Source of the DNA: an uncultured Caldisericota bacterium
GTDB lineage: Bacteria; Caldisericota; Caldisericia; Cryosericales; Cryosericaceae
DNA length: 24,442 nucleotides
Direction of reading: 5' to 3'
Assembly: GCA_964516155.1 (NCBI GenBank)
Contig: CAZEWU010000002.1
Location: 1 to 24,442 of the forward strand
Both the position numbers and the translations under genes were made by a program. Numbering within the stretch: position 1 is the stretch's first letter; the number at the start of each line of letters is the position of its first letter. Under the pieces are notes generated by a model that was not told where the DNA came from, did not search any database, and was given only the letters and a program-made list of their open reading frames with translations. Below are positions 2,543 to 21,366 of this stretch, one piece after another.

Positions 2543-3058
2543 CTACAATGCTTCCTGCGGCTGTCTGTCGGATGGAGAACGCCGCGGGCGGAACATGGTC
2601 ACAAGGACGGCGGACGCAACACGGACATCCCCGGAAAACGCTTCCATGCTGCTTTCCACAAGGCCGTGTCTGTTCCCCGTCAGAGCGCCCCGGAGCGTCA
2701 GCGTGGTTCCCGGAAAAACCGCCTTGTGAAACCGTACCTCGTTCATGCCGACAAAATATCCGATATACCCCCTATATTCCGGCAGGGTGAGGACGATCAG
2801 CGACGACGCCTGCGCCATGGCTTCCACGATAAGGACGCCGGGCGTCAGGGGAAATCCCGGAAAGTGCCCCGCATAGAGCGGCAGGTCTCTGGCAAACACA
2901 ACCTGCGCACAGACGCGGACGCCGGGGACAACGTCGGCCGGCCCGTTCACGAACAGGAACGGCTCCCGCTGCGGGAGGATATTCCGCACCTCTTCAGCAT
3001 TGAGCCTCAGAACTCCCGTCGGCTGATGTTCCATTGCTTCCTGGTGCACATTCGCCAT
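2543..3058 (-). CDS. fabZ: 3-hydroxyacyl-[ACP] dehydratase, FabZ family (hotdog fold)
   Basis: Signature 'GHFPGFPLTPGVLIVEAMAQ' and an N-terminal 'LPQREPFLFVN' match FabZ. GAGGAG lies 5 nt upstream of the ATG at 3058. Confidence 0.75.
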   Translation of the reverse strand: MANVHQEAMEHQPTGVLRLNAEEVRNILPQREPFLFVNGPADVVPGVRVCAQVVFARDLPLYAGHFPGFPLTPGVLIVEAMAQASSLIVLTLPEYRGYIGYFVGMNEVRFHKAVFPGTTLTLRGALTGNRHGLVESSMEAFSGDVRVASAVLVTMFRPRRSPSDRQPQEAL

Positions 3059-3195
3059 ATCTGCTCCTCTTCTTCCATCTCCAGCGCTCTCCGGATATCA
3101 GGAGGCGCCATGGTCCAGTGTATGCATTTTATGCCGCCGCGCCACCTGGAGACAGCCGGCATTGTAATCAGAAGACCACCGGATATACTGCAGGC

Positions 3196-3747
3196 ATGGC
3201 TGAAGAAATAAGGCTTCAACGCAGCGGCGCAGTCGTTCTCTGCGTACCGGGCGATGCCGCCGGCTACATTGATATGTTCCGCCGCCGGTACGATCCTCAT
3301 GTGGCGCAGATCATGCCGCATATCACGCTGGCGTTTGCCACCGAGCTTGACACCGTGACGTGGCAGGCGGCGCGGCGGCATGTCCAGGATACTCTTGCCG
3401 GCCTGTCCCCGTTCACGATCAGTGTTGCGGAGACCGGCACCTTTGAAGGCGGCGAGCCCGTCCTGTGGCTCAGGCCCCGCGACAGCGCCGGGGAGATACT
3501 CATGTTGCGGCAGACAGTCCTGCAGGCATTTCCACATATCCGGTTTGACCGGCCGGACGATTTTGTGCCCCATATCTCGATCGGGTTCTTCAGGACGCAG
3601 AAAGAGCTTGCCGGTGCAGAACAGGCGGTTCGCCGTGAACTGCGGCCGTTCTCTTTCCGTGTTGCCTTCGTCTCCTTCCTGTATGCCGGCGAGAAGGACA
3701 TCTGGAAGTCTGTTGACGCCCTGGAACTGGGGAACGGGGGTCGCTGA
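3196..3747 (+). CDS. 2H phosphoesterase superfamily protein, LigT/ThpR-like RNA 2',3'-cyclic phosphodiesterase
   Basis: Two H-x-T/S-x motifs ('HITLAF' and 'HISIGF') at LigT-like spacing. The track ORF starts at 3034, but the first plausible start is ATG 3196 ('MAEEIRL...'). The upstream 54 codons would overlap the divergent fabZ gene. Confidence 0.7.
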   Translation: MAEEIRLQRSGAVVLCVPGDAAGYIDMFRRRYDPHVAQIMPHITLAFATELDTVTWQAARRHVQDTLAGLSPFTISVAETGTFEGGEPVLWLRPRDSAGEILMLRQTVLQAFPHIRFDRPDDFVPHISIGFFRTQKELAGAEQAVRRELRPFSFRVAFVSFLYAGEKDIWKSVDALELGNGGR

Positions 3748-17158: not shown

Positions 17159-17356
17159 AAACTCTTTCCTTGCACTGACATGACGAAGTACCTGTCAAAC
17201 GCCTGAAGCCAAGTCAGCGAATCACAGAGACAGCGCCCTCCCTGGTTCGCTGCCCACGCCGGTTGCTGTTAAGCTGCATCGTCATCATCTGATTGCAGGA
17301 CGGCCCCCGTTACCAGCGCGCTATCTCTGTGGGCGATACCGGAGACAAGATTCAGA

Positions 17357-17387
17357 AAGGCCGTGACGAAAAAACAGTCACGGCCTT
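17357..17387 (-). terminator. putative terminator hairpin (11-bp stem AAGGCCGTGAC / GTCACGGCCTT, 9-nt loop) about 65 nt downstream of dfx; the trailing U-tract is weak
   Basis: Perfect stem read from the sequence. On the minus strand it is followed by TCTGAATCTTG. Confidence 0.4.
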
Positions 17388-17451
17388 CTGCCGACGATCT
17401 GCCAGGGAGAAGAATGTTATATCTTCATCCTCCTCGTTACCCAGTCGTTAT

Positions 17452-17826
17452 CTAAAAGTCAGCCTTCCAGAGGCCATGGATATTGCAGTAAGCGTACACG
17501 GTGCCGGAAACGGCCTCGGCAAATTCTGCTCCGGGTTCCATACCGGGCGTCAGGAATACGATGTCAACCTTGTTGCCGGTCACAAGAGCGATCCACTCGA
17601 TATGATGCTCCGGCAGCATGGGGTGCGGCGTCGATCCAACCACGACCTTGATCTTGCCATTCTCTCTGGTGATGACCGGGACGTGTTTTTCCCGTGAGGC
17701 ATCGGTCGAATTCGCCTTAAGCTCCGTCATCGCCTGACCGCAGCAGGTCAGCGTTCCGCCGCCCTTTTTGAGCAGGGCCACCATATTGCCGCACTTCTCA
17801 CAACGATAAAAAGCGATATCAGACAT
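17452..17826 (-). CDS. dfx: desulfoferrodoxin (2Fe superoxide reductase, Dfx)
   Basis: N-terminal desulforedoxin domain 'YRCEKCGNMV...LTCCG' and a C-terminal neelaredoxin domain with 'HHIEWI' and 'CNIHGLW'. AGGAGG lies 8 nt upstream of ATG 17826 ('MSDIAFY...'). Confidence 0.9.
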   Translation of the reverse strand: MSDIAFYRCEKCGNMVALLKKGGGTLTCCGQAMTELKANSTDASREKHVPVITRENGKIKVVVGSTPHPMLPEHHIEWIALVTGNKVDIVFLTPGMEPGAEFAEAVSGTVYAYCNIHGLWKADF

Positions 17827-17893
17827 CTTTGTACCTCCTCTGTCAAAAATCATCAAACATCAGTATAACCAGCGTTACGCGACATCATGATCT

Positions 17894-18709
17894 TCATGCA
17901 AAGACAACAATGGCCTGTCTGCGTTTGATGCGGAGCAGAACAGTCTCAAGCACACGCAGACTATAGTTCAGATTTTTCTGTTCCAGGTAGGCGGTTGTGA
18001 TGTCCTGTCCGATCACCAGGTCCATATTTCTCGAATCGGAACAGACAAGGACGGCCTTTCCCTTGCCCAGCACCGGCGTCCTGAAAACATGTCCGTCCAG
18101 CAGCTTGTTCACCCGGTCGATCTCCAGCAGACCGGTTCCCTGCTGTATCCGCTGCATCTGCATATACAGGTCCGGACTGACGGAAAGAGCATACGTCCCG
18201 TAAATGCTTTTCCCCGCCAGCAGTTCGATCGCAGAAGCGATATCGGTGAAGGCATTCTCCCCGGATGCCCAATCTTTTCTGGTGATCTTGCCGGTCCCGG
18301 ACGCCGTCAACAGACCTTCATAGCCGAGTCTCGCGTTTCCCGAATAGATCAGCTTGTCTTCGTTGAGCGCGCATGTTTCCGCCGAAGCCATCACTTTTGA
18401 AAGGTCCACAGGATACCCTGACTGTCTGCTGTTTTCAAGGTCCCGTGCCAGCAGCGTAACATCATCGTAAATGATCGGTATCTCTGCAAGCTTCCGGCCT
18501 CTGGTCGTGATGACGCCGTCTTTTGCAGCCTCGTCAACAGCATCGCTGTCATCGATCTGGACGCTTTCCACTCCGACGCCCAGCGGCCCGAAAATGTGCA
18601 GAAAACGCCGGCCGGACAGGACATTGCGAGCCGTCTCCGTCACAGCGGAATCGATCTGTCTCCACAGCTCCGCAGGTATTGAAGAGGATTCTCTGGATAA
18701 ATAACTCAT
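17894..18709 (-). CDS. family 1 encapsulin nanocompartment shell protein (HK97 fold, Linocin_M18/CFP29 family)
   Basis: The 271-aa protein aligns end-to-end by eye with T. maritima encapsulin: N-terminal 'ELWRQIDSAVTETARNVLSGRRFL..FGPLG', C-terminal 'LVIGQDITTAYLEQKNLNYSLRVLETVLLRI' versus '[31 protein letters not shown]'. RBS GGTGGAGG precedes the start. Confidence 0.85.
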   Translation of the reverse strand: MSYLSRESSSIPAELWRQIDSAVTETARNVLSGRRFLHIFGPLGVGVESVQIDDSDAVDEAAKDGVITTRGRKLAEIPIIYDDVTLLARDLENSRQSGYPVDLSKVMASAETCALNEDKLIYSGNARLGYEGLLTASGTGKITRKDWASGENAFTDIASAIELLAGKSIYGTYALSVSPDLYMQMQRIQQGTGLLEIDRVNKLLDGHVFRTPVLGKGKAVLVCSDSRNMDLVIGQDITTAYLEQKNLNYSLRVLETVLLRIKRRQAIVVFA

Positions 18710-18727
18710 ATCTGTGCCTCCACCAGA

Positions 18728-19108
18728 CTACGCTTCTTTATCGCTGATCATACTGCCCACAGTCTCCGGGCCGGCAACATCCGATTTCTGCTCCGCCGGA
18801 GGTTCCGTTCCTCCCGGCTCGTTAAGCATGGTCCTGACTTCCTCTTCACCGGAAGCAAACAGTTCGGCTTCTCTGGGGTCCAGTGCGGTAAGCAGGGTCA
18901 TCAATTCCCCGACGTGGGCCTTTTCTTCGTCACGGATATCAGCAAGGACCTTTTTTGCCATTTCATTGTCCGTGGCCTGAACATGTGCGTCATAGAGGTA
19001 GATAGCTTCCAGTTCACCCGCGATATCCAGACGGACCGCCTGGATCAGTTCCTTCTTCGTCAACTGTCGGTTGACATTGCCTTGGAAAGGATTTGCAAAA
19101 GCTGGCAT
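18728..19108 (-). CDS. encapsulated ferritin-like protein (EncFtn/Flp) cargo with a C-terminal targeting-peptide-like tail
   Basis: Di-iron ligand pattern 'GELEAIYLY ... DEEKAHVGEL' (E...ExxH). A Gly/Pro/Glu-rich linker is followed by a C-terminal 'ETVGSMISDKEA' resembling the TVGSLI-type encapsulin cargo-loading peptide. AGGAGG precedes the start, and the gene lies 18 nt upstream of the encapsulin gene. Confidence 0.8.
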   Translation of the reverse strand: MPAFANPFQGNVNRQLTKKELIQAVRLDIAGELEAIYLYDAHVQATDNEMAKKVLADIRDEEKAHVGELMTLLTALDPREAELFASGEEEVRTMLNEPGGTEPPAEQKSDVAGPETVGSMISDKEA

Positions 19109-19313
19109 CTCTTCAACCTCCTTTTACTGCTCTTGATAAAGAGACTATTTCCAGAATGTCTCTCGCCTCTCAATGAGAGCCGGCTCTGTTCTTCAGACCG
19201 CCGTCACACTCATCGATACGCTGTCAGCAAGCGGTGACAGAAATTCGTGGAGGAAGTGTCCACGCAATGTTCCATGGACCTCCAGATTATGTTTCAACTC
19301 CTTATCTATATGT

Positions 19314-19342
19314 ATTTTACATTATTCATACATTTAAATCAA
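19314..19342 (-). promoter_or_regulatory. sigma-70-type promoter for the EncFtn-encapsulin-dfx operon: -35 TTGATT, 17-nt spacer, -10 TAAAAT (minus strand)
   Basis: Near-consensus hexamers with ideal spacing. The predicted transcription start gives a ~200-nt leader, which contains an ATGTAT-N12-ATACAT inverted repeat across the -10 and two more inverted repeats downstream. Confidence 0.55.
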
Positions 19343-19396
19343 CACTGAAACCGCACTTTTCCGGAAGCGACGGACATCAGTCCGGGGTTTCCCGGA

Positions 19397-19615
19397 TTAC
19401 TTCTCTTTCTCATACGCCAGGAGATCGCCCGGCTGGCAGTCCAGCGCCCTGCAGATCTTCTCCAGCGTCTCTAACCGTATGGCGCGCGCCTTCCCGTTCT
19501 TGAGGATGGAGATGTTCGCCATGGTGATCCCCACTTTCTCCGACAGTTCGGTAACACTCATCTTTCGTTTTGCCATCATGACATCCAGCGTCACATTGAT
19601 CGCCACAGGGATCAC
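19397..19615 (-). CDS. XRE/Cro-C1-family HTH transcriptional regulator, YozG-like
   Basis: 'DVMMAKRKMSVTELSEKVGITMANISILKNGKARAIRLETLEKICRALDCQPGDLLAYE' is the stereotyped YozG-type sequence. GTG start 19615 overlaps the stop of the upstream DUF2975 gene (translational coupling). Confidence 0.85.
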   Translation of the reverse strand: MIPVAINVTLDVMMAKRKMSVTELSEKVGITMANISILKNGKARAIRLETLEKICRALDCQPGDLLAYEKEK

Positions 19616-19616
19616 C

Positions 19617-20096
19617 TCAGATCGTCAGATCGTTGTCTGTTTTCAACGCATATCCCTTCTCCACCCAATGCGACAGCACCGCTGCAACGAGGGAGACCCC
19701 CAGTCCTCCGACCTCGAGGAAAAAGCAGGCGATCAGAAGCCCGGGGTGCAGCCTGTTGGAAAAGAAGAAGACGTTACTCACCACAAAGCACAGCACCGTG
19801 TCGGACAGCGCAAGCCAGCTGATAGACTGCAGGGACCGCGAGACAGGACGGGAGAACGAGCGGTCCCTGCCGATCTCGCAGCAGATCTTCCAGAGATTCC
19901 CCAGGGCCAGGTAACAGGGAACCGCGGCAATCCAGATCCAGATCACATAGGACCGGAACAGGTAAGCAAGGTCAGGAAAAGACCGTCCGAAATCCCTGCC
20001 CATGCCGGGGATGATATAAAAGAAGAAAGCGGTTGCCAGCGCCGTTACCAGAACTGTGATGCATTTCAGCCATCGCGCCAGTTGCGACTGTTTCAT
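19617..20096 (-). CDS. DUF2975-family small membrane protein (partner of YozG-like regulators)
   Basis: A ~160-aa protein with 4 hydrophobic segments, immediately upstream of and coupled to the YozG-like gene, as in the widespread DUF2975-HTH pairs. AAGGAGGTG precedes ATG 20096. Confidence 0.65.
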   Translation of the reverse strand: MKQSQLARWLKCITVLVTALATAFFFYIIPGMGRDFGRSFPDLAYLFRSYVIWIWIAAVPCYLALGNLWKICCEIGRDRSFSRPVSRSLQSISWLALSDTVLCFVVSNVFFFSNRLHPGLLIACFFLEVGGLGVSLVAAVLSHWVEKGYALKTDNDLTI

Positions 20097-20403
20097 AGAG
20101 CACACCTCCTTGTGGGTCGTGTGTTCTCACTATATCGGTATATTATCGTTTTTCAATATGTATTTATTGTATGTCGATATTCCAGCAGTGCCTCAGCCTC
20201 TGTCGCACATGTATTCCAAAGACCACTGTCAGAGCAGAGAGATCATCTGATGCGGGATGTGTCCAGTCGGAAGGGTATGGACACCCCTCATCTCTCAGGC
20301 GAGAGTGCGACCGGGGACGACCCTGCGTCAACATTCGACATCTGCACCCGCCGGCATCTGCCGATTGCTCTCATCAGGAACCTTCTATGAAAAGAGGCCG
20401 TAC

Positions 20404-20458: not shown

Positions 20459-21130
20459 CTAGGCCAGGTATTCCCTCAATTCCCTGCAGTTCTCCGCATA
20501 GGTGTGACCGGGACGGAACGCCGTCTTGGTCCCCAGCACCAGGATGTCGGCTCCCTGTTTGACGACCTGACGTGCATCATTAAACGTAAGGCTCCCGTCC
20601 ACCTCTATCGAGACATCCTGTCTTCCATGCTCGTCCAGCATCTTGCGTGTTCTGGCGATCTTGTCCAGGATCTGACTGTCAAGTTCCGGTTCCGGTACAG
20701 TGAAATTGCGTATCATCAGATTTACCATGTCGACATACGGGATCAACTCCTCCAGCACACTGAGGGGAGTGCCTGGATTCAACGTCACTGCCGGCCTGCC
20801 ACCAGCGTTCCGCACCCTTTTGAGAAGAGATGTGATCTGCATGGTCGTCTCTATCTGGATATCGATGCAGGAATTCTTGCAGTATGGCAAGAAAGCATCC
20901 AGGAGATGAGCAGGCCTTCCGACTGAAATATGAATGTCCAGCGGAATAGCCGTAGCCGCGCAGATGGCGGGAATCAGTTTCGGCGACATCAGGATTGTCT
21001 CGCCATAACTTGTATCCAGGATATCGATATGAAGCAGGTCAACCTTCGCTTCTTCCAGCTTCCCGAGCTCGGATCCCAACGCCAGCCAGTCTGCGCGTTC
21101 AATAGAAGGAGCTAGTCTGATCTTAAGCAT
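20459..21130 (-). CDS. ribulose-phosphate 3-epimerase family protein (Rpe / allulose-6-phosphate 3-epimerase-like TIM barrel)
   Basis: 'MLKIRLAPSIERADWLALGSELGKLEEAKVDLLHIDILD' matches the Rpe N-terminus, with His/Asp metal-ligand spacing. The track ORF begins 51 codons upstream and out of context. Confidence 0.8.
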   Translation of the reverse strand: MLKIRLAPSIERADWLALGSELGKLEEAKVDLLHIDILDTSYGETILMSPKLIPAICAATAIPLDIHISVGRPAHLLDAFLPYCKNSCIDIQIETTMQITSLLKRVRNAGGRPAVTLNPGTPLSVLEELIPYVDMVNLMIRNFTVPEPELDSQILDKIARTRKMLDEHGRQDVSIEVDGSLTFNDARQVVKQGADILVLGTKTAFRPGHTYAENCRELREYLA

Positions 21131-21149
21131 ATTCTCTTCACCATCCCCG

Positions 21150-21366
21150 CTAGTGCAGGTATGCACGCAGCGCGTTGCAGCGTTCCACGACGGAAACACC
21201 AGGCTGATAGATGCTTTTTGTCCCCAGGACAAACACGCTGGCACCCGCCTCTTGCGTGCGGCGAGCCACGTCAAACGAAACACCGCCGTCTACTTCGATC
21301 GGAACATCCTGCCTTCCGTGCTCATCCAGCATCTTCCGTGCCCGTGCCACCTTGGTCAGCAGCTGG
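21150..21366 (-). pseudogene. truncated paralog remnant: C-terminal ~70 codons of a second rpe-family gene, with its own stop, directly upstream of the intact copy
   Basis: The encoded 'SQLLTKVARARKMLDEHGRQDVPIEVDGGVSF...VLGTK' is about 65% identical to 'SQILDKIARTRKMLDEHGRQDVSIEVDGSLTF...VLGTK' of the intact gene. DNA similarity ends abruptly at about 21366, in a TATAAT that carries an in-frame TAA. Confidence 0.6.

Follow-up and report, generated by a model that had tools for sequence, protein, structure and literature searches.

A predicted EncFtn, encapsulin and desulfoferrodoxin operon in a Caldisericota contig, probably part of the oxygen defence of an anaerobe

We analysed a 24,442-nucleotide (nt) stretch of contig CAZEWU010000002.1 from an uncultured Caldisericota bacterium (the window, meaning this whole stretch), in which three adjacent genes encode an encapsulated ferritin-like protein (EncFtn), a family-1 encapsulin shell protein (Enc) and the 2Fe superoxide reductase desulfoferrodoxin (Dfx). 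We consider it quite probable that these genes form a functional encapsulin iron nanocompartment operon with a non-encapsulated superoxide reductase, a module of the oxygen defence of an anaerobe. Judged by its sequence, the features that define a family-1 Flp/EncFtn encapsulin and a 2Fe superoxide reductase are present as far as they were tested, save the TIGR00320 model. The individual parts are of ordinary, well-known kinds, and the value of the finding lies in the genomic context, not in a new mechanism.

The genes lie on the minus strand in the order EncFtn-type cargo, family-1 shell and Dfx, all co-directional, from 19108 down to 17452:

18728..19108, minus strand: encFtn, 126 amino acids (aa), EncB/EncC-type encapsulated ferritin-like cargo
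18731..18766, minus strand: C-terminal cargo-targeting peptide of EncFtn, ETVGSMISDKEA, with TVGSM, a variant of the TVGSL motif
17894..18709, minus strand: shell gene, 271 aa, family-1 encapsulin of the Myxococcus xanthus EncA-like lineage
17452..17826, minus strand: dfx, 124 aa, desulfoferrodoxin (2Fe superoxide reductase)

An earlier note on this DNA had described three co-directional open reading frames (ORFs) with gaps of 18 and 67 nt, and exactly this layout was found (encFtn-shell gap, 18710-18727; shell-dfx gap, 17827-17893). A GGAGG ribosome-binding site stands 7-8 nt before each of the three start codons. The dfx start was taken as the ATG after GGAGG; the longest ORF would begin at a TTG at 17856. 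Hidden Markov model searches of the three ORFs, which the earlier note had proposed, matched all three families above cut-off.

The shell protein scored 283.9 bits against NCBIfam encap_f1 (NF041155, cut-off 100) and 235 bits against Pfam Linocin_M18 (PF04454, cut-off 24.3, E = 1.1e-69). It aligned end to end with M. xanthus EncA (4PT2, residues 4-268; E = 5.8e-54, 186 bits), and reached 161 bits with the Quasibacillus thermotolerans shell (6NJ8) and 57 bits (E = 1.6e-14) with the Thermotoga maritima shell. The family-1 identity claimed for the shell before was confirmed, whereas the likeness to T. maritima encapsulin claimed with it holds at the family level only. At E <= 1e-10 we detected 380 shell homologues, and among the 120 matches listed nearly all are 271 aa long. 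The end-to-end alignment to solved shells implies an HK97-type fold; an AlphaFold2 prediction built on 24 aligned sequences was too poor to use (mean predicted local distance difference 44.3, predicted template modelling score 0.33). The M. xanthus EncA shell is T=3, the Q. thermotolerans shell T=4 and the T. maritima shell T=1. Because the window shell and cargo resemble EncA/EncC far more than the T. maritima proteins, a 180-subunit T=3-like particle appears more likely than a 60-subunit T. maritima-like one; the solved shells of the EncA/EncC-like lineage are of the larger T=3 or T=4 kind.

The HK97 fold is common to encapsulins and phage capsids, and a weak secondary Pfam match to Major_capside was detected (25.4 bits, below the cut-off of 26.8), as might be expected if the shell gene were a remnant prophage capsid (HK97 major capsid protein). 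We rejected this reading and give it practically no credence: the curated family-1 model is matched at the score given above, the shell gene is immediately preceded by the gene of a cargo protein bearing a targeting peptide, and 271-aa orthologues recur in the same two-gene EncFtn-shell arrangement. Terminase, portal, protease and tail genes were absent from the window, where Pfam scans of the larger ORFs detected housekeeping and regulatory families only.

The cargo protein matched NCBIfam EncB_fam (NF058679) at 164 bits (cut-off 90) and passed Pfam EncFtn-like (PF22277) marginally at 27.3 bits (cut-off 27), while TIGR04535 (encapsulin-associated ferritin-like) gave 97.5 bits, below its cut-off of 125. 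The ferroxidase-centre residues E32, Y39, E62 and H65, which we take to be the ligand positions from the Rhodospirillum rubrum EncFtn structure, are present, and the ExxH motif reads EKAH. Among solved structures the nearest are those of M. xanthus EncC (7S8T, E = 1.3e-17) and the Pyrococcus furiosus EncFtn domain (5N5E, E = 1.2e-16); the alignment to both spans about 90 residues, with the ferroxidase columns aligned and conserved, and 2E0Z also matches. The EncB_fam score and the four intact residues bear out the earlier description of the first ORF as an EncFtn ferritin-like protein with the ExxH pattern.

A T[VI]G[SG]L-type motif was found 2-8 residues from the C terminus in 80/80 related EncFtn proteins (81/81 including the window), and the TVGSM variant is shared by the window and one related locus (L017 in our numbering of loci). 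The TVGSL motif is the family-1 encapsulin targeting peptide (PMC11202242). These features suggest that the window EncFtn is a ferroxidase with an intact di-iron site, packed via its C-terminal tail.

Dfx scored above the cut-offs of Pfam Desulfoferrod_N (PF06397, 48.6 bits), Desulfoferrodox (PF01880, 68.2 bits), TIGR00319 and TIGR00332, and has the two-domain architecture, N-terminal desulforedoxin-like and C-terminal neelaredoxin-like. The equivalog model TIGR00320 was a near miss (141.1 bits, just under the cut-off of 146.9); the superoxide reductase call stands despite this, because the domain-level models and the ligands are intact. Centre I has C9, C12, C28 and C29, and centre II has H48, H68, H74, C114 and H117, plus E46 and K47. 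Full-length alignment to the desulfoferrodoxin chains 2JI2 (E = 2.9e-33) and 1DFX (E = 1.1e-31), whose metal-ligand identity we take as established, showed the ligand columns to be conserved. The third ORF is thus the 2Fe superoxide reductase that the earlier note had proposed, with both Pfam domains and all ligands in place.

The position after the shell gene often holds secondary cargo or accessory genes, for instance the ferredoxin of the IMEF system (PMC8346489; bioRxiv 10.1101/085266), and Dfx could accordingly be a second cargo, packed with EncFtn and reducing superoxide inside the compartment. We consider this very unlikely and rejected Dfx as a cargo protein: the 124-aa window Dfx aligns end to end with the free-living 2JI2 and 1DFX proteins, it has no terminal extension and no TVGSL-like motif at either end, and all 30 encapsulin-linked Dfx proteins have canonical termini, likewise without such a motif at either end. 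Furthermore, encapsulin-free loci also harbour close homologues of this Dfx (73-77% identity), and the protein electron donor on which Dfx depends would have to gain access to the shell interior. Dfx most likely works outside the shell. Two linked Dfx proteins (L063:6846-7202 and L073:6871-7227) are 119 aa long, begin MSKIHFYLSEDAKT and are without the first CxxC of centre I, resembling class III superoxide reductases in that loss.

The coupling of dfx to the encapsulin pair was analysed in related loci, as a neighbourhood survey of this kind had been suggested beforehand. The window shell was aligned with 23 homologues, and one genome per GTDB species was scanned; of the 177 loci confirmed, the 80 best serve as the related loci, and their shells share 54-73% identity with that of the window. 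EncFtn was detected by tblastn directly upstream of the shell in 80/80 loci. Among the 73 loci informative for the dfx count, each with at least 500 nt of downstream sequence, 29 have Dfx directly downstream of the shell on the same strand; two further truncated loci have Dfx, and one has a 45-aa Dfx fragment. The shell-to-dfx gap is 21-297 nt (median 71 nt), and a terminator-like hairpin was found in 1/30 shell-dfx gaps vs 8/30 regions after dfx. The genes flanking the triad vary from locus to locus, so the dfx linkage is not a matter of general synteny. The operon-level coupling to Dfx, which the earlier note had flagged as its own inference, is supported by the conserved order, the short gaps and this distribution of hairpins.

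Dfx-bearing loci are scattered over most clades of the neighbour-joining shell tree. The triad was detected in Lachnospiraceae (Anaerocolumna, Lachnoclostridium, Mobilisporobacter), Acutalibacteraceae (Caproiciproducens, Caproicibacter), Oscillospiraceae (Thermoclostridium) and Selenomonadaceae of the class Negativicutes (Pectinatus), that is, in at least four families and two classes (Clostridia, Negativicutes). Two genomes carry two full triads each, Caproiciproducens sp. R1 (CP194790.1; L013, L071) and the metagenome-assembled genome UMGS926 (L012, L067). The shells of the paired copies are 70% and 60% identical to that of the window and are placed in different clades of the shell tree, suggesting acquisition of the whole triad as a unit and not recent duplication.

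Closer to the window, the near-identical contigs L081 and L082 have the same triad and L087 (shell 75% identical) has Dfx next after the shell, while in L085 (84% identical shell; 1790-2110) and L086 (74%; 2704-3258) rubrerythrin, not Dfx, occupies the slot. By this gene order, Dfx and rubrerythrin look interchangeable in the position after the shell over short evolutionary distances. The 45-aa fragment after the shell in L019 (3354-3488), 71% identical, is probably a decayed dfx, suggesting dfx loss after ancestral linkage. Shell and Dfx distances are significantly correlated (Mantel test, r = 0.44); we did not use this result as evidence of co-evolution, because shared vertical descent gives the same result.

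The redox-gene surroundings extend beyond Dfx. Neighbour ORFs were clustered, cluster representatives were scanned against Pfam and partners were counted within 3.5 kb. Dfx was detected in 31/80 loci, rubrerythrin in 19/80, nitroreductase in 13/80 (type A) and 9/80 (type B), a two-subunit 2-oxoacid:ferredoxin oxidoreductase (KorAB-like) in 12/80 and glutathione peroxidase in 4/80; 53 of the 80 loci have at least one of these partners. The recurrent layouts are KorAB-EncFtn-Enc-rubrerythrin, EncFtn-Enc-Dfx-KorAB-rubrerythrin, EncFtn-Enc-Dfx-rubrerythrin, nitroreductase-EncFtn-Enc and EncFtn-Enc-Dfx-nitroreductase-glutathione peroxidase, and the window carries the minimal EncFtn-Enc-Dfx form. 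Judged by these neighbourhoods, Dfx is one of several interchangeable redox partners of the encapsulin pair.

The KorAB-like enzyme (POR/POR_N alpha-gamma fusion plus thiamine pyrophosphate-binding beta subunit) lies upstream of encFtn in L001, L004, L005, L007 and L010, and downstream of dfx in L002, L027, L048, L061 and L070; it was also found without encapsulin in L095. One possible function is to provide Dfx or rubrerythrin with reduced ferredoxin. In Pectinatus, a beer-spoilage anaerobe, both P. haikarae (L059) and P. cerevisiiphilus (L060) have EncFtn-Enc-Dfx-nitroreductase-glutathione peroxidase on one strand, followed by a candidate chemotaxis-receptor-like gene (cluster C16).

Sampling was also done in the reverse direction, from six Dfx homologues 73-78% identical to that of the window and located on long contigs. 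Three of the six lie directly behind EncFtn-Enc. The encapsulin-free clusters are nitroreductase-Dfx, Dfx-KorAB-rubrerythrin and a cluster of Oscillibacter valericigenes; the Dfx-KorAB-rubrerythrin set thus occurs without encapsulin and, in L002, L027, L048 and L061, with EncFtn-Enc in front. In O. valericigenes (L092, AP012044.1, 3845181-3852549) the Dfx is 77% identical to that of the window and belongs to one co-directional cluster in the order rubredoxin, rubredoxin-reductase-like flavoprotein, nitroreductase, Dfx, rubrerythrin, classical ferritin, glutathione peroxidase, thioredoxin-reductase-like flavoprotein. Here classical ferritin occupies the iron-sequestering place held by the encapsulin pair in other lineages. 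From these arrangements, the EncFtn-Enc pair appears to behave as a module plugged into the standard anaerobe oxygen-defence set, in the place of ferritin.

The transcription of the window operon was analysed through the following features:

19314..19342, minus strand: candidate sigma-70-type promoter TTGATT-17-TAAAAT, a 9/12 match in the consensus scan, about 205 nt upstream of the encFtn start
19144..19173, minus strand: rival 9/12 promoter site from the consensus scan, 36 nt before the encFtn start codon
19304..19339, no strand assigned: imperfect inverted repeat from the repeat search (12-nt arms, 83% complementary, 12-nt spacer), overlapping the candidate promoter
19109..19307, minus strand: putative 5' leader of ~200 nt, if the distal promoter is used
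17345..17390, minus strand: probable intrinsic terminator, GGCCGUGAC-(9 nt)-GUCACGGCC then UUUCUGAAUCUU, 62 nt past the dfx stop

The hairpin after dfx has a 9-bp perfect G+C-rich stem (-23.4 kcal/mol, z = -4.82, with 0/200 shuffles folding as well) and was missed by the consensus scan because its loop is 9 nt long. It is the probable end of the three-gene unit. No terminator-like hairpin was seen in either internal gap of the window operon, and the hairpin-free gaps together with the strong hairpin after dfx suggest co-transcription of encFtn, the shell gene and dfx.

The single near-consensus promoter described earlier could not be established, since the candidate is a 9/12 match, one of 4 such matches in the 2.7-kb region (1.8 +/- 1.5 in shuffles), and the rival site is present nearer to encFtn. 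The distal candidate is kept in the near-identical contigs L081 and L082, with one -10 change in L081. The putative leader was ruled out as a known riboswitch or leader by Rfam searches, which gave no match over the whole window at the gathering score, nor over 17380-19420 at E <= 1. Its folding is unexceptional (z = -1.72, 13/200 shuffles fold as well), and its 3' half is loosely similar in L085.

The inverted repeat at the candidate promoter could be an operator; it has no match to the Fur-family box of the related loci. Upstream of the operon (window 19397-20105, minus strand) lies a gene for a DUF2975 membrane protein (162 aa), followed after 1 nt by a gene for a 72-aa HTH_26 (Cro/C1-type) regulator, and this two-gene arrangement also stands before the triad in L081 and L082. 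The HTH_26 regulator may possibly control the encapsulin operon, for example via this inverted repeat.

A Fur-family-type palindrome, TAACAGTAATnATTACTATT (7-1-7 core AGTAATnATTACT), was detected 31-41 nt before the encFtn start in 25/81 loci, compared with a background of 0.084 hits per kb elsewhere. Its position is fixed, with a good -10 element on one side and the ribosome-binding site on the other (for example L015:5570-5600; also L014, L022, L023, L041, L062, L063 and L073), and 18 of the 25 loci also have dfx. The core presumably differs from the Bacillus subtilis Fur, PerR and Zur boxes at positions 2-3.

Several observations weigh against the proposed oxygen-defence operon. The AGTAATnATTACT box, with up to 2 mismatches allowed, was not found anywhere in the window, which thus shows no direct evidence of regulation by oxygen or iron. 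The candidate promoter has its rival, and a weak internal promoter could hide in the 67-nt shell-dfx gap. An adjacent dfx is missing from 60% of the related loci, and half of the sampled close Dfx homologues (3/6) are in encapsulin-free clusters; the EncFtn-Enc/Dfx partnership is therefore facultative, frequent and not obligatory. No gene for rubredoxin or another electron donor was found within the 24-kb window; outside the operon, redox functions are represented there by a single nitroreductase gene, about 5.5 kb away. The T-number reading is drawn from sequence similarity only.

With the missing operator, the possible internal promoter and the two counts just given, it could be argued that the adjacency has little meaning, dfx being independently transcribed and the encapsulin pair serving ordinary iron storage unrelated to oxygen stress. 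We regard this as improbable. Order, strand and short gap recur over two bacterial classes while the flanks change; terminator-like hairpins are placed after dfx more often than in the gap, as also in the window; and the loci without dfx usually have rubrerythrin, nitroreductase or glutathione peroxidase in the slot or in the near surroundings. The preferred reading remains a three-gene oxygen-defence operon, in which the encapsulin pair and Dfx probably work together against oxygen damage.

We propose that the appearance of oxygen or reactive oxygen species would set off joint transcription of encFtn, the shell gene and dfx. EncFtn decamers would be packed in the shell through the TVGSM tail and would oxidise Fe(II), and the shell would hold the resulting ferric mineral out of reach, thereby taking away the iron released from iron-sulfur clusters by superoxide. 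In the cytosol, Dfx would turn superoxide into hydrogen peroxide, drawing its electrons from rubredoxin or from some other small carrier whose gene lies elsewhere. With Fe(II) removed during peroxide production, joint expression would keep the peroxide made by Dfx from meeting free Fe(II), and Fenton chemistry would be prevented. EncFtn may itself take this peroxide as its oxidant.

A stronger version, which we hold to be doubtful, is that Dfx (rubrerythrin in the sister loci) is a dedicated working partner of the nanocompartment in an anaerobe-specific "anti-Fenton" unit, with EncFtn preferring the peroxide made by Dfx as oxidant. Dfx would possibly be docked on or near the shell exterior, and both Fenton reactants would be consumed together, with the iron locked away. 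Such a unit, if true, would give the EncFtn encapsulins of strict anaerobes a defined physiological oxidant and role. It would also parallel the rubrerythrin-tubule/encapsulin assemblies of P. furiosus.

Among known systems, the M. xanthus Enc system (EncA with EncB, EncC and EncD) has the solved shell (4PT2) and the solved cargo (7S8T) that come nearest to those of the window, and shares the ExxH ferroxidase motif and the TVGSL-type C-terminal targeting peptide. It is a family-1, T=3, iron-storing system linked to oxidative stress. Unlike it, the window encodes one cargo, immediately before the shell, lacks an EncD-like flavin ferric reductase, has a shorter shell (271 vs 287 aa) and carries a superoxide reductase gene after the shell. 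T. maritima encapsulin (maritimacin, T=1, with Flp/EncFtn cargo) likewise comes from an anaerobe and belongs to family 1; its shell is of similar length, its cargo gene again immediately precedes the shell gene, and the logic of mineralising iron within a shell is shared. It is a looser comparison, because its shell gives only 57 bits vs 186 for EncA and the window cargo falls under the TIGR04535 cut-off.

In P. furiosus, where EncFtn and encapsulin are fused in a T=3 virus-like particle, the cargo domain (5N5E) is the second-best solved match to the window cargo, which is encoded separately from its shell. P. furiosus is likewise an anaerobe relying on superoxide reductase and rubrerythrin, a functional grouping seen here as gene linkage. 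The locus tag of its rubrerythrin (PF1283) is far from that of the encapsulin (PF1192) and no operon linkage is described, whereas dfx in the window, and rubrerythrin in the sister loci, lie within the same apparent operon as the shell. Oxygen-induced rubrerythrin tubules physically enclose iron-filled encapsulin particles in P. furiosus (bioRxiv 10.1101/2025.03.19.643997); this preprint covers encapsulin and superoxide reductase, and the EncFtn-Enc-Dfx gene linkage is not described in it.

The clostridial oxygen-defence sets (Dfx, rubrerythrin, rubredoxin, NADH:rubredoxin oxidoreductase) are similar in that the window has a canonical 2Fe Dfx, and related loci join Dfx with rubrerythrin, nitroreductase and glutathione peroxidase and include the 25 with the Fur/PerR-type 7-1-7 palindrome. 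They differ from the window, which is without electron-donor genes and without such an operator, and in which the encapsulin pair takes the iron-sequestering role of the classical ferritin in the O. valericigenes cluster. In Clostridium acetobutylicum dfx belongs to the PerR oxygen-response regulon (PMC5050335).

The rest of the window, annotated by Pfam scans of the larger ORFs, is ordinary chromosomal DNA free of phage genes. The next same-strand gene beyond dfx encodes a LURP-one-related protein and starts about 400 nt further on. The remaining genes encode a carboxyltransferase, LamB/YcsF, a GGDEF protein, an aldolase, peptidases, BioY, a glycosyltransferase, the nitroreductase, a methyltransferase, a ribulose-phosphate epimerase and a BlaR1-like protein. 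A 66-aa ORF (window 21150-21350, minus strand) is closely similar to the C-terminal part of the ribulose-phosphate 3-epimerase-family protein just downstream (20459-21283) and looks like a truncated tandem paralogue or gene remnant.

EncFtn/Flp systems are thought to serve iron storage and oxidative stress resistance, and their role has been phrased as "iron homeostasis and/or oxidative stress" (PMC8346489). Neither "superoxide" nor "rubredoxin" occurs in the main text of this largest encapsulin census. In the supplementary neighbourhood table of Andreas and Giessen 2021, the part seen holds one neelaredoxin-ferredoxin-Flp-Enc-SOD locus from a Lentisphaerae genome and is unfit for counting. 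A full-text literature search of incomplete coverage returned nothing naming both encapsulin and desulfoferrodoxin. The conserved Dfx/rubrerythrin accessory of EncFtn encapsulins seems under-described, and with this coverage a prior description is possible.

Taken as a whole, the compartment genes are repeatedly embedded in the classical anaerobe oxygen-defence set in one large clade of Bacillota shells. This recurrent embedding turns the vague role of EncFtn into a specific testable hypothesis, with Anaerocolumna, Caproiciproducens, Pectinatus and Ruminiclostridium as cultivable genera, and Pectinatus could be a cultivable model for the role of the compartment in oxygen tolerance.

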